A stretch of DNA of 64,000 bases from Escherichia coli (GTDB lineage Bacteria > Pseudomonadota > Gammaproteobacteria > Enterobacterales > Enterobacteriaceae): assembly GCF_041886205.1 (NCBI RefSeq), contig NZ_CP169030.1; one strand, written 5' to 3'. Below are positions 41,371 through 64,000 of the stretch, in pieces. Position numbers and translations under genes: made by a program. The stretch's first letter is position 1; each line of letters opens with the position of its first letter. The notes under the pieces are model-generated. The model had not been told where the DNA came from and ran no database searches. It saw only the letters and a list, made by a program, of their open reading frames with translations.

Positions 41371-41466
41371 ATCCGATTAGTTGTTAATCATATTTAATCA
41401 TAGTGATTACATTCAGACCGAACAAGGCAAATAATGCGCATCTGCGCATGTAAGGCAGCATACGGA

Positions 41467-41520
41467 GGTTACATGTAACACAGGTGTAAAACCGCCAAAG
41501 CCCGGCGTAAGCCGGTACGG
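41467..41520. repeat. 54-bp GC-rich element with internal palindrome CCGGC..GCCGG, copy 1
   Basis: GGTTACATGT...GTAAAACCGCC(A/G)AAGCCCGGCGTAAGCCGGTACGG; second copy at 63652-63705. Confidence 0.6.
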
Positions 41521-41565
41521 TCGTCCGAATATCACCAGTCCCACTCCGGCCCTGCGAGGCCATGT

Positions 41566-41603
41566 GGGGGGAACCGCAGAATTCGGAAAAAATCGTACGC
41601 TAA
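41566..41603 (+). repeat. 38-bp terminal inverted repeat (mcp end) GGGGGAACCGCAGAATTCGGAAAAAATCGTACGCTAAG
   Basis: Read directly. Confidence 0.85.
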
Positions 41604-41755
41604 GCTAACGGTGTTCTCGTGACAGCTCTTTGACTAGGCTTTCTAAGGCCATTCTGATAGCCCTGACTTCCTGAAAAGCCATGGCTAAAATTTGTGCGGC
41701 TAAAAGGGATAACCGATGGTAAAGTAAGTTATCCCTGTCGAGATACTGAAAAGCG

Positions 41756-43333
41756 TTATCCTCGTTTTTCCCAAAACTGTTTTGCCAGTTCGCTCAGAGC
41801 GCTAGTTAACTGAGCGACAGATTTCGCACTTTGCAAATTATTCTGCCCGGTCTGTACATTGGTATCAGCAGCATCGCGTATATTGATAATACTGCGGTTT
41901 ATGTCTTCACTTACTGCTCCCTGCTGCTCGACCGCAGTCGCTATTTGCGCGTTCATGTCGGTAATTTCGTTAACGCGTTGGCCAATTCCATCAAGAGCTG
42001 TAGCTGCTTCCTCTGCGTGAGCTACACTCGTGTGCGCTTGCCGACTACTTTGCTCCATGACTGTAACAGCGGATTGCGCTCGCTCTTGTAGAGCGCTGAT
42101 CATGCTTTGAATATCCGTTGTCGATTGCTGTGTGCGAGCAGCAAGACTGCGAACCTCATCGGCGACAACAGCAAAACCACGCCCCTGCTCACCAGCACGC
42201 GCGGCCTCAATTGCTGCGTTGAGTGCCAACAAATTCGTTTGCTCGGCGATCCCTCGTATAACGTCAAGAACTTTTGATATCTCGTTACTTTGACCTTCAA
42301 GCTCATGAATAACCTGAGTGGCTTGCCTAATTTCACCTTCAAGGGCAGTGATTGACTGGCTTGTGTGGGCTACCAGACGCTGGCCAGATGCCGTCTCAGT
42401 GTCTGCTCTTCCGGCCGCATCTGCAGCATGCTGTGCATTGCTCGCAACCTCTTGAATGCTTGCCACCATTTGGTTTACTGCCGTTGCTATTTGATCTGTC
42501 TCTGCCTGCTGCTCAACTGTAAGTACATTGCTTGACTCAATATCCTTTAGTAGGCCTCGGGTGTGTTCGCTAAGCCGATTTGATGCATCACCTATGCGAC
42601 CTACTATGGCGCCTGTTTCAGCTTGCATCATTCGTAAAGCAAACTCTATTTGGCCAAACTCATCGGTGCGCCCAGTGTAGAGGGATTGACTTAATGGGTT
42701 ATTGGAAATATTCTTGGCTCTTTCAACCAGTCTTCCAAGAGGAGAGAGAATAGCCAAAACACTAACAGAGCTTAAGCTTCCTGACATTAAAGTGGCTAAC
42801 AATAAGCTGCTTATTGATGTATCAGTAAGCATGCCGGCAGCCATTGCGCTTGATATAATACTACCCCATATGAGCAAGAGTATTTTCACGGAAAAGCTAG
42901 CAGCCAATTTCGGCCTCGCGGCCTTCCCGCTTCTCAATTGAGCATATAATTTTTCCGCAGCCAAAACCTGCTCAGGTTCAGGCTTGGTCCTTACAGACTG
43001 GTATTCAACAATCGAACCATTCTTAGCTATTGGCGTTACATAAGCACTTACCCAATAGTGGTCGCCATTTTTACAGCGATTTTTTACTAGCCCCATCCAT
43101 GAGCGGCCAGATTTTAATGTACTCCACATATGCTCAAATGCAGCAGGCGGCATATCTGGGTGTCTTACGATGTTGTGAGGCTGGCCTAATAGTTCTTCCT
43201 CAGTGAAACCACTGATTTTAATGAAGTCAGGATTAACGTACGTGATATGGCTTTGAGGGGAGGTAGTCGAAAGAATATTGGCATCTTTTGGGAGTTCTAA
43301 GTTTCGACCCGTCACTGGTAAATTCTGGCGCAT
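41756..43333 (-). CDS. methyl-accepting chemotaxis protein with PAS domain (Tn1721 orfI-like)
   Basis: 525 aa; PAS-like N-terminus, transmembrane segments, MCP signalling domain. Confidence 0.8.
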
Positions 43334-43625
43334 AAGAACCTCAAGGGTTGGCTGTTTTATTTTATTGTTTTCGGCATTAAGCCCAATTTCTTGAGCGTTA
43401 CGATAAAGCTAGCATGGAAACGATAGGTGCAAGCAAGTTAAGGGTTGCATCGCGCATGTCAATCTAGGCTATACCCTAACTTGATGTCAGGCAGGGCCGC
43501 GCCGCTTCGTCAGAATAGAGTCTGCTTTCCCATTTTTTGACACATGCCCGCGAAGGTTATAGATTTCAGCCTGACAGAAATGGGCTTTGAGGCACAACGG
43601 AACAGAAAGTGCACTTAAGCCGCCT

Positions 43626-43650
43626 TGTCATTTTCAGAAGACGACTGCAC
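43626..43650 (+). repeat. Tn402 IRt (TGTCATTTTCAGAAGACGACTGCAC)
   Basis: Read directly. Confidence 0.85.
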
Positions 43651-43766
43651 CAGTTGATTGGGCGTAATGGCTGTTGTGCAGCCAGCTCCTGACAGTTCAA
43701 TATCAGAAGTGATCTGCACCAATCTCGACTATGCTCAATACTCGTGTGCACCAAAGCGAGGTGAGC

Positions 43767-45446
43767 ATGGCGACGGACACCCCACGGATTCCAGAACAAG
43801 GCGTGGCCACTCTGCCTGATGAGGCTTGGGAGCGTGCGCGCCGTCGTGCGGAGATCATCAGTCCGTTGGCGCAGTCGGAGACGGTCGGGCACGAAGCGGC
43901 CGATATGGCGGCTCAGGCGCTGGGCTTGTCTCGGCGCCAGGTATACGTTCTGATCCGGCGTGCCCGGCAAGGCAGCGGCCTCGTGACGGATCTGGTGCCC
44001 GGCCAGTCCGGTGGAGGTAAAGGTAAGGGGCGCTTGCCGGAACCGGTCGAGCGCGTCATCCACGAGCTACTGCAAAAGCGGTTCCTGACCAAGCAGAAGC
44101 GCAGCCTAGCGGCCTTTCACCGCGAAGTCACTCAGGTGTGCAAGGCTCAAAAACTGCGAGTGCCGGCGCGCAATACCGTGGCCTTACGGATCGCTAGCCT
44201 TGACCCGCGCAAGGTCATCCGCCGGCGGGAAGGCCAGGATGCCGCTCGTGACCTACAAGGTGTGGGCGGCGAGCCTCCTGCCGTGACCGCGCCGCTGGAG
44301 CAGGTGCAGATAGACCATACGGTCATCGACCTGATCGTGGTCGATGACCGCGACCGGCAACCTATTGGCCGCCCGTACCTGACCCTCGCCATCGACGTGT
44401 TCACCCGCTGCGTGCTCGGCATGGTCGTCACGCTGGAAGCGCCGTCTGCCGTTTCGGTTGGCCTGTGCCTCGTGCATGTCGCCTGCGACAAGCGCCCTTG
44501 GCTGGAAGGACTGAACGTGGAAATGGATTGGCAGATGAGCGGCAAGCCCTTGCTGCTCTACCTAGACAACGCGGCCGAGTTCAAGAGCGAGGCCCTGCGC
44601 CGGGGTTGCGAGCAGCATGGCATCCGGCTGGACTATCGCCCGCTGGGACAGCCGCACTATGGCGGCATCGTGGAACGGATCATCGGCACGGCGATGCAGA
44701 TGATTCACGACGAACTGCCGGGAACGACCTTCTCCAACCCTGACCAGCGCGGCGACTACGATTCCGAAAACAAGGCCGCCCTGACGCTGCGCGAGCTAGA
44801 GCGCTGGCTCACATTGGCGGTCGGCACCTACCACGGTTCGGTGCACAACGGCCTGCTCCAACCGCCGGCCGCGCGCTGGGCCGAGGCCGTGGCGCGTGTC
44901 GGCGTACCGGCCGTCGTCACACGCGCTACTTCGTTCCTGGTCGATTTTCTGCCGATCCTCCGGCGCACGCTGACCCGCACCGGCTTTGTCATCGACCACA
45001 TCCACTACTACGCCGATGCGCTCAAGCCGTGGATTGCGCGGCGTGAACGCTGGCCGTCCTTTCTGATCCGGCGCGATCCGCGCGACATCAGCCGTATCTG
45101 GGTCCTGGAACCGGAGGGACAGCATTACCTGGAAATTCCCTACCGTACCTTGTCGCATCCGGCTGTCACCCTCTGGGAACAACGGCAGGCGCTGGCGAAA
45201 CTGCGGCAGCAAGGGCGCGAACAGGTGGATGAGTCGGCGCTGTTCCGCATGATCGGCCAGATGCGTGAGATTGTGACCAGCGCGCAGAAGGCCACACGCA
45301 AGGCGCGGCGTGACGCGGATCGCCGCCAGCACCTCAAGACATCAGCTCGGCCGGACAAGCCCGTTCCGCCGGATACGGATATTGCCGACCCGCAGGCAGA
45401 CAACTTGCCACCCGCCAAACCGTTCGACCAGATTGAGGAGTGGTAG
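43767..45446 (+). CDS. tniA: TniA transposase (DDE)
   Basis: 559 aa starting MATDTPRIPEQG, as recalled for Tn402 TniA. Confidence 0.85.
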   Translation: MATDTPRIPEQGVATLPDEAWERARRRAEIISPLAQSETVGHEAADMAAQALGLSRRQVYVLIRRARQGSGLVTDLVPGQSGGGKGKGRLPEPVERVIHELLQKRFLTKQKRSLAAFHREVTQVCKAQKLRVPARNTVALRIASLDPRKVIRRREGQDAARDLQGVGGEPPAVTAPLEQVQIDHTVIDLIVVDDRDRQPIGRPYLTLAIDVFTRCVLGMVVTLEAPSAVSVGLCLVHVACDKRPWLEGLNVEMDWQMSGKPLLLYLDNAAEFKSEALRRGCEQHGIRLDYRPLGQPHYGGIVERIIGTAMQMIHDELPGTTFSNPDQRGDYDSENKAALTLRELERWLTLAVGTYHGSVHNGLLQPPAARWAEAVARVGVPAVVTRATSFLVDFLPILRRTLTRTGFVIDHIHYYADALKPWIARRERWPSFLIRRDPRDISRIWVLEPEGQHYLEIPYRTLSHPAVTLWEQRQALAKLRQQGREQVDESALFRMIGQMREIVTSAQKATRKARRDADRRQHLKTSARPDKPVPPDTDIADPQADNLPPAKPFDQIEEW

Positions 45447-46357
45447 CCGTGGACGAATATCCCATCATCGACCTGTCCCACCTGCTGCCGGCGGCCCAGG
45501 GCTTGGCCCGTCTTCCGGCGGACGAGCGCATCCAGCGCCTTCGCGCCGACCGCTGGATCGGCTATCCGCGCGCAGTCGAGGCGCTGAACCGGCTGGAAGC
45601 CCTTTATGCGTGGCCAAACAAGCAACGCATGCCCAACCTGCTGCTGGTTGGCCCGACCAACAATGGCAAGTCGATGATCGTCGAGAAGTTCCGCCGCACC
45701 CACCCGGCCAGCTCCGACGCCGACCAGGAGCACATCCCGGTGTTGGTCGTGCAGATGCCGTCCGAGCCGTCCGTGATCCGCTTCTACGTCGCGCTGCTCG
45801 CCGCGATGGGCGCGCCGCTGCGCCCACGCCCACGGTTGCCGGAAATGGAGCAACTGGCTCTGGCACTGCTGCGCAAGGTCGGCGTGCGCATGCTGGTGAT
45901 CGACGAGCTGCACAACGTGCTGGCCGGCAACAGCGTCAACCGCCGGGAATTCCTCAACCTGCTGCGCTTCCTCGGCAACGAACTGCGCATCCCGTTGGTT
46001 GGGGTAGGCACGCGCGACGCCTACCTAGCCATCCGCTCCGATGACCAGTTGGAAAATCGCTTCGAGCCGATGATGCTGCCGGTATGGGAGGCCAACGACG
46101 ATTGCTGCTCACTGCTGGCCAGCTTCGCCGCTTCGCTCCCGCTGCGCCGGCCTTCCCCAATTGCCACGCTGGACATGGCTCGCTACCTGCTCACACGCAG
46201 CGAGGGCACCATAGGGGAACTGGCGCACTTGCTGATGGCGGCGGCCATCGTCGCCGTGGAGAGCGGCGAGGAAGCGATCAACCATCGCACACTCAGCATG
46301 GCCGTTTACACCGGACCCAGCGAGCGGCGGCGGCAATTCGAGCGGGAACTGATGTGA
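45440..46357 (+). CDS. tniB: TniB ATP-binding protein
   Basis: Walker A GPTNNGKS; exact start codon uncertain. Confidence 0.8.
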   Translation: MVAVDEYPIIDLSHLLPAAQGLARLPADERIQRLRADRWIGYPRAVEALNRLEALYAWPNKQRMPNLLLVGPTNNGKSMIVEKFRRTHPASSDADQEHIPVLVVQMPSEPSVIRFYVALLAAMGAPLRPRPRLPEMEQLALALLRKVGVRMLVIDELHNVLAGNSVNRREFLNLLRFLGNELRIPLVGVGTRDAYLAIRSDDQLENRFEPMMLPVWEANDDCCSLLASFAASLPLRRPSPIATLDMARYLLTRSEGTIGELAHLLMAAAIVAVESGEEAINHRTLSMAVYTGPSERRRQFERELM

Positions 46358-47571
46358 AGCCTGCGCCGCGCTGGCCGCTGCATCCCGCCCCGAAAGAAGG
46401 CGAGGCGCTGTCCTCATGGCTCAACCGCGTGGCCCTTTGCTATCACATGGAGGAGCCCGACCTGCTGGAGCACGATCTTGGTCACGGCCAGGTCGATGAC
46501 CTGGACACCGCGCCACCACTCTCGCTGCTGGCGTTGCTTTCCCAGCGGAGCGGCATCGAGCTGGACCGGCTGCGCTGTATGAGTTTCGCCGGATGGGTGC
46601 CTTGGCTACTGGACAGCCTTGATGACCAGATTCCAGACGCCTTGGAAACCTATGCGTTTCAGCTCTCGGTGTTGCTGCCAAGACTCCGCCGTAAGACGCG
46701 ATCCATCACGAGCTGGCGTGCCTGGCTGCCCAGCCAGCCGATAAACCGCGCCTGTCCGCTCTGCCTGAGCGATCCGGAGAACCAAGCCGTACTGCTCGCG
46801 TGGAAGCTGCCCCTGATGCTGAGCTGCCCGCTGCATGGCTGCTGGCTGGAATCCTATTGGGGCGTGCCAGGGCGGTTTCTCGGCTGGGAGAACGCCGACG
46901 CCGAACCGCGCACCGCCAGCGACGCGATTGCGGCGATGGACCAGCGTACCTGGCAGGCACTGACAACCGGTCACGTGGAGCTGCCGCGCCGACGCATCCA
47001 CGCCGGATTGTGGTTTCGACTTCTTCGCACGCTGCTCGATGAGCTGAACACCCCGCTTTCCGCGTGCGGAACCTGCGCGGGGTATCCCCGCCAAGTCTGG
47101 GAAGGCTGCGGGCATCCGCTGCGTGCTGGGCAAAGTCTGTGGCGACCGTATGAAACCCTGAATCCGATAGTACGGTTACAGATGCTGGAGGCGGCGGCAA
47201 CGGCAATCAGCTTGATTGAGGTGAGGGACATCAGCCCGCCAGGCGAGCAGGCAAAGCTATTCTGGTCCGAGCCCCAAACCGGGTTCACCAGTGGCCTGCC
47301 GACGAAAGCGCCGAAGCCCGAGCCCATCAATCACTGGCAGCGTGCAGTCCAGGCCATCGACGAGGCCATCATTGAAGCGCGACACAACCCCGAGACGGCA
47401 CGCTCGCTGTTCGCGTTGGCTTCCTATGGTCGGCGCGATCCCGCTTCCTTGGAACGGTTGCGCGCCACCTTCGTGAAGGAAGGCATCCCGCCGGAATTTC
47501 TGTCACATTACCTGCCTGATGCACCCTTTGCATGTCTTAAACAAAATGACGGGTTAAGTGACAAATTTTGA
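46354..47571 (+). CDS. tniQ: TniQ
   Basis: 405 aa from GTG at 46354; ORF-track extension from 46084 judged spurious. Confidence 0.75.
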   Translation: MKPAPRWPLHPAPKEGEALSSWLNRVALCYHMEEPDLLEHDLGHGQVDDLDTAPPLSLLALLSQRSGIELDRLRCMSFAGWVPWLLDSLDDQIPDALETYAFQLSVLLPRLRRKTRSITSWRAWLPSQPINRACPLCLSDPENQAVLLAWKLPLMLSCPLHGCWLESYWGVPGRFLGWENADAEPRTASDAIAAMDQRTWQALTTGHVELPRRRIHAGLWFRLLRTLLDELNTPLSACGTCAGYPRQVWEGCGHPLRAGQSLWRPYETLNPIVRLQMLEAAATAISLIEVRDISPPGEQAKLFWSEPQTGFTSGLPTKAPKPEPINHWQRAVQAIDEAIIEARHNPETARSLFALASYGRRDPASLERLRATFVKEGIPPEFLSHYLPDAPFACLKQNDGLSDKF

Positions 47572-47617
47572 CGGATAGAGCTTTCCGGCTCACACTGTCA
47601 CATAATCGAACGTATAC

Positions 47618-48256
47618 GTGACGGGTGAAAAGGTGCTGATCGGCTACATGCGGGTATCGAAGGCGGACGGATCCCAGTCCACCAATTTGCAACGCGATGC
47701 GCTCATCGCCGCTGGTGTGAGCCTTGCGCACCTTTACGAGGATCTGGCCTCGGGCAGGCGCGATGATCGCCCAGGGTTGGCTGCTTGCCTGAAGGCGCTT
47801 CGTGAAGGGGACACGCTGATCGTGTGGAAGCTCGATCGGCTTGGCCGTGATCTGCGCCACCTGATCAACACCGTGCACGACCTAACTGCGCGTAGCGTGG
47901 GCCTGAAGGTCCTGACCGGTCACGGTGCGGCGGTCGACACGACGACTGCCGCCGGCAAGCTTGTGTTCGGTATTTTTGCCGCGCTGGCCGAGTTCGAGCG
48001 TGAGTTGATTTCCGAGCGAACAGTCGCTGGACTTATCTCGGCGCGCGCTCGCGGCAGGAAAGGGGGGCGCCCCTTCAAGATGACCGCCGCCAAGCTACGC
48101 CTGGCGATGGCCAGCATGGGGCAACCGGAAACCAAGGTGGGCGATCTCTGCGAAGAACTCGGGATTACCCGGCAGACGCTCTACCGGCACGTGTCGCCCA
48201 AGGGCGAACTGCGGCCAGACGGCGTAAAGCTGCTCTCCCTCGGTTCAGCCGCATAA
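47618..48256 (+). CDS. tniR: TniR (TniC) serine resolvase
   Basis: 212 aa; N-terminal LIGYMRVSKADGSQ serine-recombinase motif. Confidence 0.8.
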   Translation: MTGEKVLIGYMRVSKADGSQSTNLQRDALIAAGVSLAHLYEDLASGRRDDRPGLAACLKALREGDTLIVWKLDRLGRDLRHLINTVHDLTARSVGLKVLTGHGAAVDTTTAAGKLVFGIFAALAEFERELISERTVAGLISARARGRKGGRPFKMTAAKLRLAMASMGQPETKVGDLCEELGITRQTLYRHVSPKGELRPDGVKLLSLGSAA

Positions 48257-48460
48257 ATGGAGGCGACCTGGAACGGGGCGCTGTTCAGTGCGGCAACGAT
48301 CCGATTACCGGTGTCGACCCAGAGCAGCCGTAGAGCTTTTGGGAAAGCTGTCGTTCAACGTTTGACGTGAGGGGCCGCCGTAGCGGCGAAGCCGCGAAGG
48401 GAACCCGCAAGCGCAGCTTGTGGGCGGTCCCTCTCGACGGAATGGTTAGATGCGACCGTT

Positions 48461-48793
48461 TTAGTGAACACTTGCCTTAGATAGCAAGTTGAGCACAGCA
48501 ACGCCGCTGATAATGAAGCCGACACCAACAAATCCCCACATATCTAGTTTTTGACCATGCAAAACCCATGCAATCGCAGTGACCAAGACGATCCCGAGGC
48601 CCGACCAAACTGCGTAGGCGATTCCAACAGGAATCGATTTGAGTGTCAGCGACAGGAAATAAAAAGCAGCAGCGTATCCCGCTACGACGATAAAAGACGG
48701 TACTAACCTAGTAAAGCCCTCACTAGACTTGAGCGCAGAGGTTGCAATGACCTCAAAAATAATGGCCGTAGCCAGAAATAACCAATTTTTCAA
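48461..48793 (-). CDS. qac: SMR-family quaternary-ammonium efflux protein on a gene cassette (qacE-related, full length)
   Basis: 110 aa (TTG start) immediately downstream of attI1; intact SMR C-terminus ...[10 protein letters not shown] rather than the qacEdelta1 tail. Confidence 0.75.
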
Positions 48794-48895
48794 AATATTT
48801 CTCCATGGAGTTCCGCGAAGAAATTTTAGGTTCGATTTAAGAAAAAAAACAGTCTTGTTGCTGGCCGAAATTTGTGCGCACAGCAAAGCATCTAA

Positions 48896-48960
48896 CTTTG
48901 TTTTAGGGCGACTGCCCTGCTGCGTAACATCGTTGCTGCTCCATAACATCAAACATCGAC
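48896..48960 (-). promoter_or_regulatory. attI1 integron recombination site (copy 1, intact)
   Basis: GCCCTAAAACAAAG|TTA junction read on minus strand at 48893-48909. Confidence 0.65.
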
Positions 48961-49031
48961 CCACGGCGTAACGCGCTTGCTGCTTGGATGCCCGAGGCAT
49001 AGACTGTACAAAAAAACAGTCATAACAAGCC

Positions 49032-50045
49032 ATGAAAACCGCCACTGCGCCGTTACCACCGCTGCGTTCGGTCAAGGTTCTGGACCAGTTGCGTGAGCGC
49101 ATACGCTACTTGCATTACAGTTTACGAACCGAACAGGCTTATGTCCACTGGGTTCGTGCCTTCATCCGTTTCCACGGTGTGCGTCACCCGGCAACCTTGG
49201 GCAGCAGCGAAGTCGAGGCATTTCTGTCCTGGCTGGCGAACGAGCGCAAGGTTTCGGTCTCCACGCATCGTCAGGCATTGGCGGCCTTGCTGTTCTTCTA
49301 CGGCAAGGTGCTGTGCACGGATCTGCCCTGGCTTCAGGAGATCGGAAGACCTCGGCCGTCGCGGCGCTTGCCGGTGGTGCTGACCCCGGATGAAGTGGTT
49401 CGCATCCTCGGTTTTCTGGAAGGCGAGCATCGTTTGTTCGCCCAGCTTCTGTATGGAACGGGCATGCGGATCAGTGAGGGTTTGCAACTGCGGGTCAAGG
49501 ATCTGGATTTCGATCACGGCACGATCATCGTGCGGGAGGGCAAGGGCTCCAAGGATCGGGCCTTGATGTTACCCGAGAGCTTGGCACCCAGCCTGCGCGA
49601 GCAGCTGTCGCGTGCACGGGCATGGTGGCTGAAGGACCAGGCCGAGGGCCGCAGCGGCGTTGCGCTTCCCGACGCCCTTGAGCGGAAGTATCCGCGCGCC
49701 GGGCATTCCTGGCCGTGGTTCTGGGTTTTTGCGCAGCACACGCATTCGACCGATCCACGGAGCGGTGTCGTGCGTCGCCATCACATGTATGACCAGACCT
49801 TTCAGCGCGCCTTCAAACGTGCCGTAGAACAAGCAGGCATCACGAAGCCCGCCACACCGCACACCCTCCGCCACTCGTTCGCGACGGCCTTGCTCCGCAG
49901 CGGTTACGACATTCGAACCGTGCAGGATCTGCTCGGCCATTCCGACGTCTCTACGACGATGATTTACACGCATGTGCTGAAAGTTGGCGGTGCCGGAGTG
50001 CGCTCACCGCTTGATGCGCTGCCGCCCCTCACTAGTGAGAGGTAG
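49032..50045 (+). CDS. intI1: class 1 integron integrase IntI1 (copy 1)
   Basis: 337 aa; matches recalled IntI1 sequence. Confidence 0.95.
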
Positions 50046-50222
50046 GGCAGCGCAAGTCAATCCTGGCGGATTCACTACCCCTGCGCGAAGGCCATCGGTG
50101 CCGCATCGAACGGCCGGTTGCGGAAAGTCCTCCCTGCGTCCGCTGATGGCCGGCAGCAGCCCGTCGTTGCCTGATGGATCCAACCCCTCCGCTGCTATAG
50201 TGCAGTCGGCTTCTGACGTTCA

Positions 50223-50247
50223 GTGCAGCCGTCTTCTGAAAACGACA
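50223..50247 (+). repeat. Tn402 IRi (internal copy)
   Basis: GTGCAGCCGTCTTCTGAAAACGACA read directly. Confidence 0.85.
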
Positions 50248-50329
50248 TTTGAACCGGGAACCTTCCCTTTTTGGCTAGGCGTGAAACAATGGTCATTTTC
50301 CCTATACCCAAAATGACCAGGAGGCCCGC

Positions 50330-50407
50330 ATGAAAGTCGCACGCATCTACCTGCGCGTGAGCACGGAGGAACAAGACCTAAGCCGGCAGGATGCCATCGT
50401 GGAGAGC
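50330..50407 (+). pseudogene. 5' fragment of a serine resolvase gene (MKVARIYLRVSTEEQDLSRQDAIVES), truncated by the 88-bp repeat
   Basis: 26 codons with serine-recombinase N-terminal motif, then abrupt junction. Confidence 0.5.
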
Positions 50408-50495
50408 TTAAATAAGACCGTCCCGTAAATTTCAGCCGAATCCGACAAAAAGGCGTGAAGATTTCCTTTAAATAGAGAGACCGAAGGTCATCCTT
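50408..50495 (+). repeat. 88-bp direct repeat flanking the tet(M) segment, copy 1
   Basis: TTAAATAAGACCGTCCCGTAAATTTCAGCCGAATCCGACAAAAAGGCGTGAAGATTTCCTTTAAATAGAGAGACCGAAGGTCATCCTT; identical at 52999-53086. Confidence 0.85.
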
Positions 50496-50968
50496 TTCCT
50501 AAAAAAGGGGGGGGCCATGGTTCCAAGATGTAAAATCGAGGGCTAATTCAGGCTATACTTGAACTATCCTTAATGGAATCTTTAGCCAGCGGTATCAACG
50601 AAGCAAGAAACATCGAAGACTAATTAAAAGAATCCATACATAACGGAAAGAGCCGATAAAATGAGATTGTATTAATCTCATTTTATCGGCTCTGCGTCTT
50701 TGCGTCTGGCTCTGTAATCGCAGTTACTTTGAACTGCTTTATTTCAATTAAATTTTCTTGTCTGCATTTCGGACAATAGAGGGGGAATTTTTTTAATTCA
50801 GTATCTTCCCTTATCTTTAATCGTGTTTTATTTCCACATACAGGACACAATATCCACTTGTAGTTTATAATAACTATCTCCTCCTTTACACTTTAATTCA
50901 AATCTTTATTAAAAAATATTTCATCTTATTTAACAAGAAACCATATTTATATAACAACATAAAATACA

Positions 50969-52888
50969 CTAAGTTATTTTATTGAACATATATCGTACTT
51001 TATCTATCCGACTATTTGGACGACGGGGCTGGCAAACAGGTTCACCGGTAGTAACATGGTACCCTTTTAACTCTGTTAAACAAACACTACGTCCATTTGT
51101 AAAGAAAGTTAAATCACTACGATATTCTTGAATACACCGAGCAGGGATTTCTCCACTAAGAATGACCTCATTATTTTTCAATTGAGTGTCTACGATGTTC
51201 GCACAATATTTAGGAGCATCGTTGTATGCTCGTGAAAGATATTCCTGTGGCGCATAAATTTTAAAACTAAGATATGGCTCTAACAATTCTGTTCCAGCTT
51301 TTTTTAAGACTTGTTCCAATACAATAGGAGCAAGCATCCGAAAATCTGCTGGGGTACTAACAGGGCTATAGTATAAGCCATACTTAAAACAGATTTTACA
51401 GTCCGTCACATTCCAACCATACAATCCTTGTTCACAGCCATAGCGTATCCCTTCCATAACTGCATTTTGAAATGATTGATTTAAGTATCCAAGAGAAACC
51501 GAGCTCTCATACTGCATTCCACTTCCCAACGGAAGCGGTGATACAGATAAACCAATGGAAGCCCAGAAAGGATTTGGCGGCACTTCGATGTGAATGGTAT
51601 ATTCTGCATTTTTTAACGGTCTCTCCATATAAATGACTGTAGGCTCTTTTAGTTCTATCTCCACATGATACTTTTCTTGCAACAGTGCACTAATCACTTC
51701 CATTTGTACTTTCCCTAAGAAAGAAAGTATAATTTCATGTGTCGTAGAATCCACGTAATATCGTAGAAGCGGATCACTATCTGAGATTTCCAAAAGGGCA
51801 TCAAGCAACATTTCTCTCTGTTCAGGTTTACTCGGTTCAACAGTTGTTTGTAGTAGAGGGTGCGGATTTTCAATCTTTTTTCTCTGTGGCAATAGTTTTG
51901 TATCTCCAAGAACACTATTTAACTTCAAAAACTCATTTTGCAAAATAACAATTTCCCCGGAATAAGCCTTATCGATTTTACATAATTCACCATTTATTGA
52001 AGTATACATTTCTGTAATTTTTATTTTTTCCTTTTCCGATATTCTAACCGAATCTCGCAAATGCAGTACGCCACTATAAAGACGTATATATGCAAGACGT
52101 TGTCTTTTTTTTGTATATTCAATTTTGAAAACATTTCCGCAAAGTTCAGACTGACCTCGATGTGTTGATGAATAAAATTTATTCGTAATCACTTCTATAA
52201 GGTTATCAATCCCTATATTGTTTTTTGCACTTCCATGATAAAGAGGGAACAGAGAACAATTCTGAAATCTTATGCTTTCCTCTTGTTCGAGTTCCAATGC
52301 TTCTAATGATTTACCGGACATATATTTCTCTAAAAGGTCATCGTTTCCCTCTATTACCGTATCCCATTGTTCAGATTCGGTAAAGTTCGTCACACACATA
52401 TTAGGATACAGTTCTACCTTCTGTTTGATTACAATTTCGGCAGAAAGTTTCTCTTTAATATCCTGATAAACCGTTGATAAATCAATTCCATTTTGGTCAA
52501 TCTTATTGATAAAAAAGATTGTGGGAATCCCCATTTTCCTAAGTGCATGAAATAATATACGAGTTTGTGCTTGTACGCCATCTTTTGCAGAAATCAGTAG
52601 AATTGCCCCATCTAAAACTGATAATGAACGATATACTTCTGCTAAGAAATCCATATGTCCTGGCGTGTCTATGATGTTCACCTTCGTATTTTCCCACTGA
52701 AAAGAGGTTATTCCTGTCTGAATTGTAATTCCTCTCTGACGTTCTAAAAGCGTATTATCCGTCCTCGTTGTACCTTTGTCCACGCTTCCTAATTCTGTAA
52801 TCGCTCCACTGTTATATAATAAGCTTTCTGTTAAGGTAGTTTTTCCCGCATCAACATGAGCTAAAACTCCAATATTAATAATTTTCAT
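50969..52888 (-). CDS. tet(M): Tet(M) ribosomal-protection tetracycline resistance protein
   Basis: 639 aa from [39 protein letters not shown]...; translational GTPase fold; very close to recalled Tet(M). Confidence 0.95.
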
Positions 52889-52903
52889 GTGATTTTCCTC
52901 CAT

Positions 52904-52990
52904 TCAAAAGCCCAAAAGGGCATAAAAATCCCAGTGATAAATACTCTTATCACTGGGATTTTTATGCATAACCATAGGCATACAAAGCAT
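52904..52990 (-). CDS. tet(M) leader peptide (Tn916 orf12-like attenuation leader)
   Basis: 28 codons MLCMPMVMHKNPSDKSIYHWDFYALLGF directly upstream of tet(M). Confidence 0.7.
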   Translation of the reverse strand: MLCMPMVMHKNPSDKSIYHWDFYALLGF

Positions 52991-52998
52991 ACAGATAT

Positions 52999-53086
52999 TT
53001 AAATAAGACCGTCCCGTAAATTTCAGCCGAATCCGACAAAAAGGCGTGAAGATTTCCTTTAAATAGAGAGACCGAAGGTCATCCTT
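52999..53086 (+). repeat. 88-bp direct repeat flanking the tet(M) segment, copy 2
   Basis: Identical to 50408-50495. Confidence 0.85.
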
Positions 53087-53131
53087 GAAGAAGGAGTCCT
53101 CGGTGAGATTCAGAATGCCGAACACCGTCAC
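53087..53131 (-). pseudogene. sul1: sul1 5' fragment (codons 2-16: VTVFGILNLTEDSFF) fused to truncated attI1
   Basis: Minus-strand GTGACGGTGTTCGGCATTCTGAATCTCACCGAGGACTCCTTCTTC matches recalled sul1 start; joined at ...CAGCAGG|GTGACGG. Confidence 0.7.
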
Positions 53132-53247
53132 CCTGCTGCGTAACATCGTTGCTGCTCCATAACATCAAACATCGACCCACGGCGTAACGCGCTTGCTGCT
53201 TGGATGCCCGAGGCATAGACTGTACAAAAAAACAGTCATAACAAGCC

Positions 53248-54261
53248 ATGAAAACCGCCACTGCGCCGTTACCACCGCTGCGTTCGGTCAAGGTTCTGGA
53301 CCAGTTGCGTGAGCGCATACGCTACTTGCATTACAGCTTACGAACCGAACAGGCTTATGTCCACTGGGTTCGTGCCTTCATCCGTTTCCACGGTGTGCGT
53401 CACCCGGCAACCTTGGGCAGCAGCGAAGTCGAGGCATTTCTGTCCTGGCTGGCGAACGAGCGCAAGGTTTCGGTCTCCACGCATCGTCAGGCATTGGCGG
53501 CCTTGCTGTTCTTCTACGGCAAGGTGCTGTGCACGGATCTGCCCTGGCTTCAGGAGATCGGAAGACCTCGGCCGTCGCGGCGCTTGCCGGTGGTGCTGAC
53601 CCCGGATGAAGTGGTTCGCATCCTCGGTTTTCTGGAAGGCGAGCATCGTTTGTTCGCCCAGCTTCTGTATGGAACGGGCATGCGGATCAGTGAGGGTTTG
53701 CAACTGCGGGTCAAGGATCTGGATTTCGATCACGGCACGATCATCGTGCGGGAGGGCAAGGGCTCCAAGGATCGGGCCTTGATGTTACCCGAGAGCTTGG
53801 CACCCAGCCTGCGCGAGCAGCTGTCGCGTGCACGGGCATGGTGGCTGAAGGACCAGGCCGAGGGCCGCAGCGGCGTTGCGCTTCCCGACGCCCTTGAGCG
53901 GAAGTATCCGCGCGCCGGGCATTCCTGGCCGTGGTTCTGGGTTTTTGCGCAGCACACGCATTCGACCGATCCACGGAGCGGTGTCGTGCGTCGCCATCAC
54001 ATGTATGACCAGACCTTTCAGCGCGCCTTCAAACGTGCCGTAGAACAAGCAGGCATCACGAAGCCCGCCACACCGCACACCCTCCGCCACTCGTTCGCGA
54101 CGGCCTTGCTCCGCAGCGGTTACGACATTCGAACCGTGCAGGATCTGCTCGGCCATTCCGACGTCTCTACGACGATGATTTACACGCATGTGCTGAAAGT
54201 TGGCGGTGCCGGAGTGCGCTCACCGCTTGATGCGCTGCCGCCCCTCACTAGTGAGAGGTAG
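53248..54261 (+). CDS. intI1: class 1 integron integrase IntI1 (copy 2)
   Basis: Identical 337-aa translation to copy 1; at least one silent nucleotide difference (49121 T vs 53337 C). Confidence 0.95.
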
Positions 54262-54438
54262 GGCAGCGCAAGTCAATCCTGGCGGATTCACTACCCCTGC
54301 GCGAAGGCCATCGGTGCCGCATCGAACGGCCGGTTGCGGAAAGTCCTCCCTGCGTCCGCTGATGGCCGGCAGCAGCCCGTCGTTGCCTGATGGATCCAAC
54401 CCCTCCGCTGCTATAGTGCAGTCGGCTTCTGACGTTCA

Positions 54439-54463
54439 GTGCAGCCGTCTTCTGAAAACGACA
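54439..54463 (+). repeat. Tn402 IRi (outer copy) followed by target duplication CGCCT
   Basis: Read directly. Confidence 0.85.
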
Positions 54464-54485
54464 CGCCTTCAACCAAGGAGACATC

Positions 54486-55046
54486 GTGCAGGGGCACCGC
54501 ATCGGCTACGTCCGGGTCAGCAGCTTTGACCAGAACCCGGAACGCCAGCTGGAACAAACCCAGGTGAGCAAGGTGTTCACCGACAAGGCATCGGGCAAGG
54601 ACACCCAGCGCCCCCAGCTCGAAGCGCTGCTGAGCTTCGTCCGCGAAGGCGATACAGTGGTGGTGCACAGCATGGATCGGCTGGCCCGCAACCTCGATGA
54701 CCTGCGTCGCTTGGTACAGAAGCTGACTCAGCGCGGCGTGCGCATCGAGTTCCTGAAGGAGGGCCTGGTGTTCACTGGCGAGGACTCGCCGATGGCCAAC
54801 CTGATGCTGTCGGTGATGGGGGCCTTCGCTGAGTTCGAGCGCGCCCTGATCCGCGAGCGGCAGCGTGAGGGCATCGCCTTGGCCAAGCAGCGTGGCGCGT
54901 ACCGGGGCCGCAAGAAAGCCCTGTCCGATGAGCAGGCTGCTACCCTGCGGCAGCGAGCGACGGCCGGCGAGCCCAAGGCGCAGCTTGCCCGCGAGTTCAA
55001 CATCAGCCGGGAAACCCTCTACCAGTACCTCCGCACGGACGACTGA
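54486..55046 (+). CDS. tnpR: Tn3-family serine resolvase TnpR
   Basis: 186 aa MQGHRIGYVRVSSFDQNPERQ...; IRi lies only 22 bp upstream, i.e. within the expected res region. Confidence 0.9.
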   Translation: MQGHRIGYVRVSSFDQNPERQLEQTQVSKVFTDKASGKDTQRPQLEALLSFVREGDTVVVHSMDRLARNLDDLRRLVQKLTQRGVRIEFLKEGLVFTGEDSPMANLMLSVMGAFAEFERALIRERQREGIALAKQRGAYRGRKKALSDEQAATLRQRATAGEPKAQLAREFNISRETLYQYLRTDD

Positions 55047-55049
55047 CAC

Positions 55050-58016
55050 ATGCCGCGTCGCTTGATCCTCTCGGCCACGGAGCGGGACACCCTGCTTGCG
55101 CTGCCGGAAAGCCAGGATGACCTGATCCGCTACTACACCTTCAACGACTCCGACCTGTCGCTGATCCGCCAGCGACGCGGCGACGCCAACCGCCTCGGCT
55201 TCGCCGTGCAGCTCTGCCTGCTGCGCTACCCCGGTTACGCGCTGGGAACCGACAGCGAGCTGCCCGAGCCGGTCATCCTGTGGGTGGCGAAGCAAGTCCA
55301 GGCCGAGCCGGCGAGCTGGGCAAAGTACGGCGAGCGCGACGTGACCCGTCGCGAGCATGCCCAGGAACTGCGCACCTACCTGCAACTGGCCCCGTTCGGC
55401 CTGTCCGACTTCCGCGCCCTGGTGCGCGAGCTAACCGAGCTGGCCCAGCAGACCGACAAAGGCTTGCTGCTGGCCGGTCAGGCCCTGGAGAGCCTACGGC
55501 AGAAACGACGCATCCTGCCGGCGCTGAGCGTGATTGACCGGGCCTGCTCGGAAGCCATTGCGCGAGCCAATCGGCGGGTCTACCGCGCCCTGGTCGAACC
55601 ACTCACGGACTCGCATCGGGCCAAGCTGGACGAGCTGTTGAAGCTCAAGGCCGGCAGCAGCATCACCTGGTTGACCTGGCTGCGCCAGGCACCGCTGAAA
55701 CCCAACTCTCGGCACATGCTGGAACACATCGAGCGGCTGAAGACATTTCAGTTGGTGGACTTGCCCGAAGGCCTGGGCCGGCACATCCACCAGAACCGCC
55801 TGCTCAAGCTGGCCCGCGAGGGTGGGCAGATGACGCCCAAAGACCTCGGTAAGTTCGAGCCGCAGCGCCGCTACGCGACCCTGGCCGCCGTGGTGCTGGA
55901 GAGCACCGCGACCGTGATCGATGAGCTGGTCGATCTGCATGACCGCATCCTGGTCAAGCTGTTCAGCGGCGCGAAGCACAAGCATCAGCAGCAGTTCCAG
56001 AAGCAGGGCAAGGCGATCAACGACAAGGTGCGCCTGTACTCCAGGATCGGCCAGGCGCTGCTGGAAGCGAAGGAAAGCGGCAGCGACCCCTATGCCGCCA
56101 TCGAGGCGGTGATTCCCTGGGACGAGTTCACCGAGAGCGTCAGCGAGGCCGAGCTGCTGGCCCGGCCGGAAGGCTTCGACCACCTGCACCTGGTCGGCGA
56201 GAACTTCGCCACCCTGCGCCGTTACACGCCGGCCTTGCTGGAGGTGCTGGAACTGCGCGCCGCGCCGGCCGCGCAAGGCGTGCTGGCAGCCGTGCAGACC
56301 CTGCGTGAGATGAACGCCGACAACCTGCGCAAGGTGCCGGCCGATGCACCCACGGCCTTCATCAAGCCGCGCTGGAAGCCGCTGGTGATCACCCCGGAAG
56401 GCCTCGACCGGAAATTCTACGAAATCTGCGCCCTGTCCGAGCTGAAGAACGCCCTGCGCTCCGGCGACATCTGGGTCAAGGGCTCGCGGCAGTTCCGCGA
56501 CTTCGACGACTACCTGCTGCCGGCCGAGAAGTTCGCCGCACTCAAGCGCGAGCAGGCCCTGCCCCTGGCGATCAACCCGAACAGCGACCAGTACCTGGAA
56601 GAGCGTTTGCAGCTGCTGGACGAGCAGTTGGCCACCGTCACCCGCCTGGCCAAGGACAACGAGCTGCCCGATGCCATCCTCACCGAGTCAGGGCTGAAAA
56701 TCACCCCGCTGGATGCGGCGGTGCCGGATCGGGCGCAGGCGCTGATCGACCAAACCAGCCAGTTACTGCCGCGCATCAAGATCACCGAACTGCTGATGGA
56801 CGTGGACGACTGGACGGGCTTCAGCCGCCACTTCACCCACTTGAAGGACGGGGCCGAGGCCAAAGACAGGACGTTGCTGCTGTCCGCAATCCTCGGTGAT
56901 GCGATCAACCTCGGGCTGACCAAGATGGCCGAGTCGAGCCCCGGCCTGACCTACGCCAAGCTGTCCTGGCTGCAAGCCTGGCACATCCGCGACGAAACCT
57001 ATTCGGCGGCCTTGGCCGAGCTGGTCAACCACCAGTATCGCCACGCCTTTGCCGCCCACTGGGGCGACGGCACGACCTCATCCTCCGATGGCCAGCGCTT
57101 CCGCGCGGGTGGCCGGGGCGAGAGCACCGGGCACGTCAACCCGAAGTACGGTAGCGAGCCGGGACGGCTGTTCTATACCCATATCTCCGACCAGTACGCG
57201 CCGTTCAGCACCCGCGTGGTGAATGTCGGCGTCCGCGATTCCACCTATGTGCTCGACGGCCTGCTGTACCACGAGTCCGACCTGCGGATCGAGGAGCACT
57301 ACACCGACACGGCCGGCTTCACCGATCACGTCTTTGCCCTGATGCACCTGCTAGGCTTCCGCTTCGCGCCGCGCATCCGCGACCTCGGCGAAACCAAGCT
57401 GTACGTGCCGCAGGGCGTGCAAGCCTACCCGACGTTGCGCCCGCTGATCGGCGGCACCCTGAACATCAAGCACGTGCGTGCCCACTGGGACGACATCCTG
57501 CGCCTGGCCAGCTCGATCAAGCAGGGCACCGTCACCGCCTCGCTGATGCTGCGCAAGCTCGGCAGCTACCCGCGCCAGAACGGACTGGCCGTGGCCCTGC
57601 GCGAGCTGGGCCGGATCGAGCGCACGCTGTTCATCCTGGACTGGCTGCAAAGTGTTGAACTGCGCCGCCGCGTGCATGCCGGCCTGAACAAAGGTGAGGC
57701 GCGCAACTCGCTGGCCAGGGCGGTGTTCTTCAACCGCCTTGGGGAAATCAGGGATCGGAGCTTCGAGCAGCAGCGCTACCGGGCCAGCGGCCTCAACCTG
57801 GTGACGGCGGCTATCGTGCTGTGGAACACGGTGTACCTGGAACGCGCCACCCAGGGGTTGGTCGAGGCCGGCAAGCCGGTGGACGGCGAGCTGCTGCAAT
57901 TCCTGTCGCCGCTGGGCTGGGAGCACATCAACCTAACCGGCGATTACGTCTGGCGGCAGAGCCGCAGACTGGAAGACGGGAAGTTTCGGCCCTTACGGAT
58001 GCCCGGAAAACCTTAG
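55050..58016 (+). CDS. tnpA: Tn3-family transposase TnpA
   Basis: 988 aa; reads toward the terminal inverted repeat. Confidence 0.9.
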
Positions 58017-58049
58017 CGTACGATTTTTTCCGAATTCTGCGGGCTCCCC
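58012..58049 (-). repeat. 38-bp terminal inverted repeat (tnpA end) GGGGAGCCCGCAGAATTCGGAAAAAATCGTACGCTAAG
   Basis: Read directly as reverse complement; overlaps tnpA stop. Confidence 0.85.
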
Positions 58050-58567
58050 TTGTTTGTACGATTCGATATCGATACTGCGTAATGGCCGGTACTTCCCTGT
58101 ACCCAGCTTAAGATTATTACGCCAGACATCATCCCCATTAAGATTGATATGCTCCCAGCCCAACGGCGAAAGGTGAGTGCAGTTGGTCATTAATCGGGAG
58201 CTTTTTTCGTTTCAGGGACTCAATGGCTCTTTCTATGTATACCGTGTTCCATAATTTTTCACTCCGTTGAAAACGGAGTACGTGGCAATCGTATCAGTGA
58301 TACAGTTGAGGCAATTGACACGAATACCCTTTCCGGTATTGATGGCATCAGTTGAAGAGCATGTTATTCTCTTGAGCTATTTGTGCCACACAGGCGCGGG
58401 GGGCGTTTTTTACCACGGGGACTTCGGGCATAAAAACAAGGGGCCGCAAACACGGCCCTTAATTCAGATCTAACCGGGTACGCTATCTGTTGCCCTGGAA
58501 AATTGATCTGACAACTCAGTAAAGATCAATACGGTTCTGACGAGCAGCTTACCTGCCTGTTTGCGTT

Positions 58568-59863
58568 TCAGAGCTTATTCTCTGCTGTCTGATAGCCACG
58601 GCTGAGACGAACAAACAGCATTGCCGTTGCGGCGAGTCCGCATAGCGCCGCGCACATGAGCCACCACCCCGGAGAACTCTTATCGCCGGTCAACTGGACC
58701 AATGCGGTGGAGATAGCAGGCGTCAGGCCGCCGAAAATCGCAGTCGCAAGACTAAAGGCCAGCGAAAAACCCACGGTTCGGACATAAACCGGCATCACTT
58801 CGGTCAGGGCCGCCACCATCGCACCGTTATACATGCCAAAAAAGAACGAGAACCAGAGCAGCACCAACGTCATGCGGGTGAAGTCAGGGGCAGCGGTAAG
58901 CCAGTTCATCACCGGCCAGGTGGTGACGAGGGCGAGCAAGGTGATGCCCATCAGCACCGGGCGTCGCCCGATCCGATCAGAGATAGCGCCGCCAATCGGC
59001 AGCCAGATGAAGTTAGAAATCCCTACCAGCATGGTGACAACCAGGCTGTCACGTGCGCTCAGGTTCAACACCGTTCTCCCGTAAGTGGGGGTATAGACAG
59101 TAATAAAATAAAAGGTCGTGGTCGTCATCGCTACCAGCAGGGTACCCGCGGTGATGATGCGCCAGTTTTTAGCAATGGTGGTAAAAATTTCCCGGGTGTC
59201 CGGACGGTGTTTACGTTGTAAAAAGGCTTCAGTTTCCTGTAGCGAACGTCGAAGAACAAAAATCAGCGGAATAATCATGCAGCCAATGAAGAACGGGATT
59301 CGCCAACCCCATTCGGAGATTTCATCGTGTCCCAGCGTGACATTCAGACCGTAGCCGATCAGCGCGGCGACGACAATCGCCACCTGCTGGCTGGCCGATT
59401 GCCAACTGGTGTAAAAGCCTTTATTGCCTGGTGTAGCGATCTCAGAAAGATAAACAGAGACGCCGCCCAGTTCGACGCCAGCAGAAAATCCCTGTAGCAG
59501 ACGCCCCACCAGGACCAGCACGGGAGCCAGCAGGCCGATAGTCTGATAACCCGGCACGAGGGCGATGAGCAGCGTGCCGCAGCCCATAATCGCCAGGGTG
59601 ACCATCAGCCCTTTCCGTCGGCCGATTCTGTCGATATATGCGCCCAACACCACGGCCCCGATAGGGCGCATTAAAAATCCGGAGCCAAAAACGGCAAAAG
59701 TAAGCATTAATGCGGCAAACTCACTTTCGGCAGGAAAAAACGTCTTTGCGATATAAGTGGCGTAAAAACCAAACAGGAAAAAATCGAACTGTTCGAGAAA
59801 ATTACCGCTGGTCACACGCAGTATTGCGCCGAACGTGCCAGCGCGCGATGGTTGTTGAGTCAT
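58568..59863 (-). CDS. tcuC: MFS transporter, tricarballylate/citrate-type (TcuC-like)
   Basis: 431 aa, 12-TM MFS; located downstream of tcuA/tcuB. Confidence 0.65.
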
Positions 59864-59917
59864 TGAAGTTGCTCCACTGTCTTATCAGAATTATGTATAG
59901 AGGTAAGAGTTTGCGGG

Positions 59918-62447: not shown

Positions 62448-62543
62448 CGTCTACTCCATTACCATTTAACTATTTGTTAAATTTGTAATTGAAATGTATA
62501 CGTATGATTGTATGGGCGCTATAACGAATAGCTAAAGATGGGT

Positions 62544-63470: not shown

Positions 63471-63651
63471 TGCGATTCTCCGGAGAAGGCTGGGATATTT
63501 ACATTAAATCAACATGCTGTCAGAAGAAAGCACTAAGTAGAGAATGGCGCGCATAACAAAACAACCGACAGGTTGACTTTTCAGAATAGGGGCAGTTTGG
63601 TGATCGTCACCAGTATATGCAGCGTCAGCTGCATGGAAGGCGGCACGCTGT

Positions 63652-63705
63652 GGTTACATGTGATACCGGAGTAAAACCGCCGAAGCCCGGCGTAAGCCGG
63701 TACGG
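63652..63705. repeat. 54-bp GC-rich palindromic element, copy 2
   Basis: About 85 percent identical to 41467-41520. Confidence 0.6.
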
Positions 63706-64000
63706 ATTGACAGATTTCACCTTACCCATCCCTTGCCCTGCCAGACCATACCTGCTTTCAGCCATGACAGAGCTTTTGTGCGCGGTCGGAGTGGTCCCGA
63801 CGAGGGTTTACCCGAAGTCGGGGCGTATCTCCGCGTTAGCGGGCCATCAGGGCCGCTTACGAGCGTGTACTCAATACTTCCAGCGAGAAGACTGACAGCG
63901 ATGAAGATGTAGTTACAACATTCATAATTAAAAGCGACTCTGTTCCGGCCCTTTGGGCCGGGGCGGGGCCGCTTTTCAGTTATGAGGGTGGGGCTTTGTG

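Follow-up and report, generated by a model that had tools for sequence, protein, structure and literature searches.

Transposons of the Tn402/Tn5053 family move by a replicative pathway in which TniA, TniB and TniQ target a res site occupied by its resolvase. Such res-hunter insertions obey a common rule, in that they leave a 5-bp target duplication and place the element with its terminal inverted repeat (IR) IRi or IRo beside the resolvase gene of the target (PMC7765201). Class 1 integrons in Tn1721 have already been reported in the literature; the tetracycline resistance gene tet(M), when found in Escherichia coli and Salmonella, has been described within Tn6539, Tn6709, Tn6942 and Tn7124, which are IS26-bounded composites containing delta-orf13 (PMC6340991, PMC11539080); and ISCR28 provides a case of a resistance gene sandwiched by two oriIS copies (PMC12772301). 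Here we analyze a stretch of 64,000 nt from E. coli (contig NZ_CP169030.1 of assembly GCF_041886205.1; hereafter the window, to which all coordinates refer) in which a Tn402-like integron carrying a qacG2 cassette and a tet(M) block is nested in a Tn1722-like transposon. We consider it very likely that a Tn402-family res hunter inserted into Tn1721/Tn1722 and later gained the tet(M) block by recombination. The kind of element, its mechanism and its exact sequence are already public.

The ends of the nested element could be read directly and were recovered by a pattern search, which returned no such matches in shuffled sequence. At the tni end lies IRt (43626-43650, plus strand), a 25-bp repeat with the sequence TGTCATTTTCAGAAGACGACTGCAC that is the same as IRt of Tn402, and at the opposite end lies an outer IRi (54439-54463, minus strand), with which it pairs at 23 of 25 complementary positions. 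Both are flanked by CGCCT, directly outside IRt at 43621-43625 and directly outside the outer IRi at 54464-54468, just as a first-pass annotation made from the sequence alone had stated. We rebuilt the empty site by joining window positions 43226-43625 to 54469-54868, thereby keeping one CGCCT in 800 bp, and found that many plasmids, e.g., pFBAOT6 (NC_006143.1), match all 800 bp at 100% in one piece. Because CGCCT is single-copy in the uninterrupted Tn1721 site and doubled here, it is a genuine 5-bp target duplication, as had been proposed. Moreover, both junctions fall exactly at the last base of the 25-bp IRs, and the element is oriented as the res-hunter rule demands, with IRi nearest to the resolvase gene tnpR. 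With its 25-bp IRs, full tniA-tniB-tniQ-res-tniR set, 5-bp duplication and insertion near res, the element belongs to the Tn402/Tn5053 family, and its orientation, duplication and near-res site bear out the earlier view of it as a res-hunter insertion.

The tni module comprises four full-length genes on the plus strand: tniA (43767-45446), encoding a DDE transposase of 559 aa; tniB (45449-46357), encoding a nucleoside-triphosphate-binding protein of 302 aa; tniQ (46354-47571; 405 aa); and tniR, also named tniC (47633-48256), encoding a serine resolvase of 207 aa and having its own res just upstream. None of the four contains an internal stop, and each product is 100% identical in amino acid sequence to its counterpart in the transposition-proficient Tn402 (Tn5090) of R751, and the same RefSeq protein accessions recur in pSH111_166 and R751; the module is therefore as complete as the first-pass annotation had supposed. 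The likeness to Tn402 extends to identical 25-bp IRt and IRi and to the overall architecture. Over the tni half (43626-48360) there is one mismatch in 4735 nt, a synonymous change at 46884 in tniQ, and over the attI1-intI1-IRi arm (48894-50247) there is one mismatch in 1354 nt, at 49146, which specifies H39 in the integrase IntI1 and TGGACA as the -35 element of the cassette promoter (Pc) here, versus N39 and TTGACA in Tn402. Between these arms, the dfrB3-orfD-qacE array of Tn402 has been swapped for one qacG2 cassette, exactly at the cassette boundaries (G/TTRRRY). In nucleotide terms, the nested element is thus Tn402 save for two single-nucleotide polymorphisms (SNPs) and the cassette array.

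The qacG2 cassette (48359-48895, minus strand) is the sole cassette and is bounded by G/TTAGAT at attI1 and by G/TTGAAC at attC. Its gene (48461-48793, minus strand) is full-length and scores 236 bits against the QacG2 model (cut-off, 220). The adjoining attI1 (48871-48942, minus strand) is intact, scoring 72.1 bits with the Rfam attI-site model RF02912 (gathering score, 56), and is followed by the first of two copies of intI1 (49032-50045, plus strand; 337 aa), with the cassette promoter PcH1 on the opposite, minus strand (49119-49147). Copy 1 therefore possesses all components of a functional class 1 integron platform, i.e., intI1, attI1, Pc and a cassette that has an attC and canonical boundaries. 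It is not an integron of the clinical sul1 type: there is no qacEdelta1-sul1 3'-conserved segment, only about 45 bp of sul1 are present, and tni is complete. The earlier statement that the first cassette is a full-length qac gene rather than part of such a segment was hence correct.

The position of the insertion relative to res was derived from conservation, by aligning the rebuilt site with the corresponding regions of a Tn1403-like (L005), a Tn501-like (L006) and a Tn21/Tn1721 hybrid (L009) transposon and of L007 and L008 (Tn1696-like). Conserved blocks delimit an inferred resI (43457-43484), whose dyad TGTCAATCTAGGCTATACCCTAACTTGA would hold the crossover site, an inferred resII (43508-43542; CGTCAGAATAGAGTC...TTTTTTGACA), which contains the -35 element of the predicted tnpR promoter, and an inferred resIII (43553-43576; AAGGTTATAGATTTCAGCCTGACA). 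In the hybrid, identity to Tn1721 begins at the center of the resI dyad, as expected for a resolvase crossover. A non-conserved spacer of approximately 45-55 bp precedes the tnpR ribosome-binding site in Tn1721 and in the Tn1403-like relative, and is lacking in the other three relatives. CGCCT stands at the end of this spacer, 44 bp past the inferred resIII and, in the empty site, 17 bp before the GTG start codon of tnpR. In the occupied site, the outer IRi ends 22 bp from that codon (54486), as previously noted; the accompanying remark that res is to be expected at this point holds only approximately, given the 44 bp that separate it from the inferred resIII. Judged by these conserved blocks, the insertion is beside res and outside resI-III. 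The nearest described parallel is Tn5058v2, "near resIII" of Tn1013#, which is an uncommon outcome (PMC7765201).

The same region of Tn1721 has received another such element. Plasmid pT5282-Ct2 (NZ_MF344574.1; L010 2608-10156) carries a Tn402-like blaIMP-8/aacA4 integron that shares the carrier, the orientation, a complete tni module and a 5-bp duplication of its own with the window element. Its duplication, CCGCT, maps to the resI-resII spacer (window positions 43502-43506), which puts it 119 bp further from tnpR; the tni module is approximately 97% identical, and the cassettes differ. We had considered the IMP-8 plasmids as instances of an insertion at the same site and rejected this, as they represent an independent event 119 bp away. 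Taken with the present insertion, the blaIMP-8 element therefore shows that the Tn1721 res region has been struck at least twice in nature.

What lies between the two copies of CGCCT is a Tn402-like integron, as first annotated, but not a single simple one: the 10.8-kb span consists of a 6.6-kb Tn402(qacG2) plus a block of 4216 bp that brings tet(M) and a second intI1-IRi with a defective attI1. Accordingly, a direct repeat of 1333 bp (48915-50247 and 53131-54463) doubles attI1'-intI1-IRi, and the sole difference between its copies (T at 49121, C at 53337) is a polymorphism of the Pc -10 element, such that copy 1 has PcH1 (TGGACA-N17-TAAACT) and copy 2 has PcW (TAAGCT). The repeat also supplies a third 25-bp IR, an inner IRi (50223-50247, minus strand) identical to the outer one and flanked by TTTGA, not by CGCCT. 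Directly abutting this inner IRi are 160 bp of an IncP-type par res fragment and the 5' end of the resolvase gene parA (50248-50407, plus strand). The first 115 bp of this fragment (50248-50362) are found, 100% identical, beside IRi in about 200 matching plasmid records sampled, and 50356-50407 matches IncP plasmid pYKBO007 just upstream of and overlapping the annotated start of parA. Because IRi adjoins parA, in keeping with the rule described for res hunters (PMC7765201), the sequence of the fragment marks it as the scar of a separate, earlier res-hunter insertion elsewhere, in an IncP plasmid.

The remainder of the block begins with a complete copy of a 153-bp unit (50408-50560, plus strand), at whose right edge the cargo starts. 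This cargo is a Tn916-derived fragment (50561-52998, minus strand) with, all on the minus strand, an orf6-like KTR gene (50683-50850), tet(M) (50969-52888) and the tet(M) leader peptide (52904-52990), including its attenuator hairpin (52920-52967). It amounts to just 2.4 kb (orf6-tet(M)-leader), with neither the int/xis nor the conjugation modules of the Tn916 family, and the interval containing it (49121-53130) has a G+C fraction of 0.44, versus about 0.62 in the tni module. There follows a second, truncated copy of the 153-bp unit (52999-53086, plus strand), a direct repeat of the left 88 bp of 50408-50560, and then a remnant of approximately 45 bp from the 5' end of sul1 (53087-53130, minus strand) that matches sul1 directly after the ATG and is fused to the truncated attI1 region of copy 2 (53131-53247, minus strand). 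The latter scores 28.6 bits with the Rfam attI model, below the gathering score: attI1 is cut at 53131, and the recombination crossover point has been deleted, so that copy 2 is not a functional integron. Its intI1 (53248-54261, plus strand) nevertheless contributes PcW (53335-53363, minus strand), which is directed at tet(M) and, pointing through the truncated attI1, could add to tet(M) transcription. In plasmid pEGYMCR_IncHI2 (L003 7960-8010), a sul1 remnant that starts at the identical nucleotide runs into the first 19 bp of IS26, next to delta-mef(B); that separate deletions should twice have stopped at one sul1 base seems unlikely. Within the literature searched (tet(M) with Tn402/Tn1721, and plasmid accessions), the tet(M) block is undescribed.

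Related plasmids exist both with and without this block. At least four deposited plasmids match the entire 11.3 kb, together with its flanks, at 100% identity (NZ_AP024116.1, CP063715.1, CP043759.1 and CP123685.1). On the other hand, pSH111_166 (NC_019121.1 / JN983043), an IncC plasmid deposited in 2012, and NZ_MW390542.1 have Tn402(qacG2) inserted at this very site, between identical CGCCT flanks, but lack exactly the 4216 bp of the block; they carry PcH1 and are otherwise base-identical except for one extra T in a T-run. In the original paper on pSH111_166, no more than a "partial class 1 integron" is described for this region (PMC3519518). The IRt junction occurs in 11 plasmids of PLSDB, and the IRi-CGCCT-tnpR junction in at least 20, other cassettes included (e.g., Salmonella Heidelberg IncI plasmids with an aadA1 cassette). 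The tet(M) block is found in 18 PLSDB plasmids and in 6 of 5426 complete E. coli genomes, and elsewhere it is joined to other integrons (pEGYMCR_IncHI2) or to other genes (pDAM_4). PcH1 is present in copy 1 and in the tet(M)-free relatives checked (pSH111_166 and pSEEH1578_01), and PcW in copy 2 and in the integron to the left of the tet(M) block in pEGYMCR_IncHI2: a single Pc SNP thus records recombination between two integron lineages.

These observations suggest the following history. A Tn402(qacG2) with PcH1 would have transposed into Tn1721/Tn1722 by means of TniA, TniB and TniQ, as is known for the family, and resolution of the cointegrate would have left the CGCCT duplication, with IRi beside tnpR. 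The unit that made the duplication is most likely the 6.6-kb form kept in pSH111_166. Subsequently, homologous recombination within 1.1-1.3 kb of intI1-IRi homology, which is probably the route by which the block entered, would have brought in the 4216 bp from a PcW integron lineage, either through crossovers at positions equivalent to 49122-50247 and 53338-54463 or through a single crossover with a 4216-bp circle. Its entry would account for the presence of two IRi ends in one element and for the order of the segments, i.e., IRi, IncP parA-res scar, ISCR-like unit, Tn916 tet(M) fragment, truncated unit, sul1 remnant, truncated attI1 and intI1.

The alternative that survives best reverses this order: the whole 10.8-kb unit, with tet(M) and the inner IRi, would have transposed first, and the forms with a single intI1 would be later loop-out deletions. 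It is indeed IRt and the outer IRi that bear the duplication, the two IRi copies have the correct orientation, and recombination in the 1333-bp repeat to the right of the SNP would yield exactly the pSH111_166 sequence with PcH1. We nonetheless hold this to be unlikely, since no 10.8-kb copy was found at another site with a duplication of its own, plasmids with the IRi-tnpR junction but no tet(M) form a broader lineage, to which the 2012 record belongs, and the tet(M) block also stands beside unrelated integrons and genes, as expected of a module spread by recombination; it would, furthermore, require a traceless prior assembly elsewhere and is the less parsimonious. Far less probable still is that the integron arrived by homologous or insertion sequence (IS)-mediated recombination instead of Tni transposition, such that the match of the two CGCCT copies is coincidental: although five matching bases would arise by chance in about 1 of 1000 cases and other recombination is evident in the region, the empty target has exactly one CGCCT at this exact place, the junctions and the orientation are those of a res hunter, and the blaIMP-8 element, which entered this res region independently, likewise shows a 5-bp duplication of its own. 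A repeat of 1.3 kb is long enough to mislead short-read assemblers, but that it produced the second intI1-IRi and the tet(M) block as an artefact of assembly is scarcely credible, because the identical structure is present in at least six complete plasmids of E. coli and Salmonella that were assembled independently and the unique junctions (inner IRi/parA, and sul1 remnant/truncated attI1) recur in other contexts.

Several points weigh against insertion of a Tn402-family res hunter followed by gain of the tet(M) block. The order of events is deduced from present-day structures, and a loop-out between the intI1 copies would regenerate the exact pSH111_166 form, including PcH1. Activity in transposition is predicted from identity to Tn402, the limits of the res subsites derive from conservation rather than footprinting, and the insertion falls outside the resI-resII interval in which most res-hunter insertions cluster. 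Expression of tnpR-tnpA by read-through, considered below, is likewise no firmer than plausible.

The carrier is a Tn1722-like transposon (TnAs1/Tn1721 family) with 38-bp IRs at 41567-41604 (plus strand) and 58012-58049 (minus strand) that pair with 3 mismatches. It contains the Tn1721 orfI, a gene for a PAS-domain methyl-accepting chemotaxis protein (mcp; 41756-43333, minus strand), tnpR (54486-55046, plus strand), whose resolvase of 186 aa is the same RefSeq protein as in uninterrupted copies, and tnpA (55050-58016, plus strand), whose product of 988 aa scores 1289 bits as a Tn3-family transposase. The 38-bp IRs, tnpA, tnpR, three-subsite res and mcp are those of Tn1722/Tn1721. The tetR-tet(A) genes and third IR of Tn1721 proper are absent from the window, which has two IRs only and tcuCBA after the right one; CP063715.1, a record otherwise sharing the junction of the Tn1722 end with tcu, has the Tn1721 tet module, and the window therefore carries the Tn1722 form. 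There is no 5-bp duplication around the 38-bp IRs (ATGTG at 41562-41566, TTGTT at 58050-58054), and the right IR abuts an inverted relic (58078-58173), approximately 70% identical, of the 3' end of another Tn3-family tnpA, which means that simple transposition does not explain how the carrier reached this backbone.

Directly to the right of the transposon is a plasmid-borne tricarballylate utilization operon (tcuC, tcuB, tcuA and a LysR-type regulator; 58568-63470). A direct repeat of 98 nt with 78% identity, one copy of which lies just outside the left IR (41446-41543) and the other approximately 5.6 kb beyond the right IR (63631-63728), encloses both the transposon and the tcu operon. Elsewhere in the window, an Rfam ALIL pseudoknot (25557-25673, minus strand; 120 bits) represents an IS3-family frameshift signal. 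Further rearrangement of this lineage is displayed by the IncC plasmid pUTAK-2-2 (L018 1-4200), in which this Tn402/tet(M) structure is linked on its left, at the Tn1721 resI, to a mer module and is followed on its right, past the outer IRi, by aph(3')-Ia/IS26, reflecting both res-mediated and IS26-mediated reshuffling.

The insertion also has a bearing on how the carrier's own genes may be expressed. The only promoter-like site upstream of tnpR (TTGACA-N17-TAGATT, 43537-43565) overlaps the inferred resII and resIII. As the insertion lies past this predicted promoter and res, tnpR-tnpA are separated from both, which are now 10.8 kb away: the ribosome-binding site of tnpR has been retained and its predicted promoter cut off. 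A stringent scan from intI1 copy 2 to tnpR returned no consensus promoter, and terminators were not in excess; intI1 copy 2, IRi, tnpR and tnpA are co-directional. Presumably, then, tnpR-tnpA depend on read-through from intI1. More tentatively, a res hunter that lands past resIII may spare res while putting tnpR-tnpA under the outward transcription of the integron.

The 153-bp unit at the border of the tet(M) fragment extends beyond plasmids. The whole unit, as present in E. coli and Salmonella plasmids, is 100% identical in contigs from environmental metagenomes and metagenome-assembled genomes (MAGs), in which the flanks differ on both sides (L012-L016, L023-L028 and L017), and in scans of genomes and metagenomes a 40-nt core of this repeat matched MAG contigs binned as Saprospiraceae, Flavobacterium (both Bacteroidota) and Oligoflexia. 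In three MAG contigs (L012, L014 and L016), the unit is situated 44 bp downstream of a gene for a 462-aa transposase with the Pfam domains Y2_Tnp and Zn_Tnp_IS91, which scores 301 bits against the NCBIfam model for ISCR clade Ia, below its cut-off, and is 38% identical to the transposase of ISCR1 and 37% to that of ISCR2. The right end of the unit (GGGCTAATTCAGGCTATAC), from which cargo extends, can be aligned to the oriIS ends of both ISCR1 and ISCR2 and has a similar distance from the transposase stop codon. The unit-bearing contigs encode, at or near the unit, Tet(X) (870 bits, above cut-off), Tet(Y) and an AadA-family enzyme, as well as Mph(E/G)-like, Lnu(H)-like, CPT-like and ABC-F-like proteins and major facilitator superfamily transporters, and in several of them the cargo lies between two direct copies of the unit, as it does in the window. 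Probably, therefore, the unit represents the oriIS end of an ISCR-like, as yet unnamed rolling-circle element. Two other identifications were rejected: the 88-bp repeat as an IS end, miniature inverted-repeat transposable element or structured RNA (Rfam returned nothing meaningful, and folding was about that of shuffled sequences, z = 0.87), and ISCR28 or another named ISCR as the source, as far as elements represented in PLSDB are concerned, where the best plasmid relatives of the MAG transposase are less than 40% identical. That such an element delivered tet(M) into class 1 integrons is possible, though we regard it as rather doubtful at present: ISCR-like delivery is a lead, not a demonstrated mechanism.

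The locus offers a clean natural example of a functional-looking Tn402, as opposed to the crippled clinical form, at a res target with its duplication intact. As this Tn402 lies inside another transposon, itself part of a conjugative plasmid, three levels of mobility are stacked on qacG2 and tet(M), and the retained element could provide defective clinical integrons with Tni functions in trans. The 153-bp unit, for its part, provides a lead on the route by which a Gram-positive tet(M) fragment came into the integron contexts of Enterobacterales.

Compared with the systems already described, the window element is Tn402 in another setting, sited beside the res of Tn1722 rather than in R751, and later enlarged by the 4216-bp block with tet(M) and a second intI1. 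With the res hunters of Tn21/Tn501-family carriers it shares the 5-bp duplication, the proximity of IRi or IRo to the resolvase gene and a res locus of a Tn3-family transposon as target (PMC7765201). In those carriers (In4/Tn1696, the Tn1403/Tn1013 integrons and Tn5053/Tn1721), the insertion is within or between resI and resII, and two natural integrons of the resI-resII region, in the Tn1403-like and Tn1696-like transposons aligned above (L005 and L008), are 172 and 103 bp from tnpR, compared with 22 bp here. As in ISCR1 complex integrons and ISCR oriIS sandwiches, the tet(M) cargo begins exactly at an oriIS-like end and has on its other side an incomplete repeat of the unit and, adjoining it, a sul1 remnant, but the window contains only the 153-bp unit and its 88-bp partial copy, with sharp unit boundaries on both sides, and not the Y2 HUH transposase gene with oriIS downstream that defines ISCR/IS91 elements. 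Finally, the Tn916-derived leader-tet(M) fragment is what the window has in common with Tn6539, Tn6709, Tn6942 and Tn7124 on Enterobacterales plasmids; here, however, there is no IS26, and the fragment is instead bracketed by the 153-bp unit and held between two copies of intI1-IRi.

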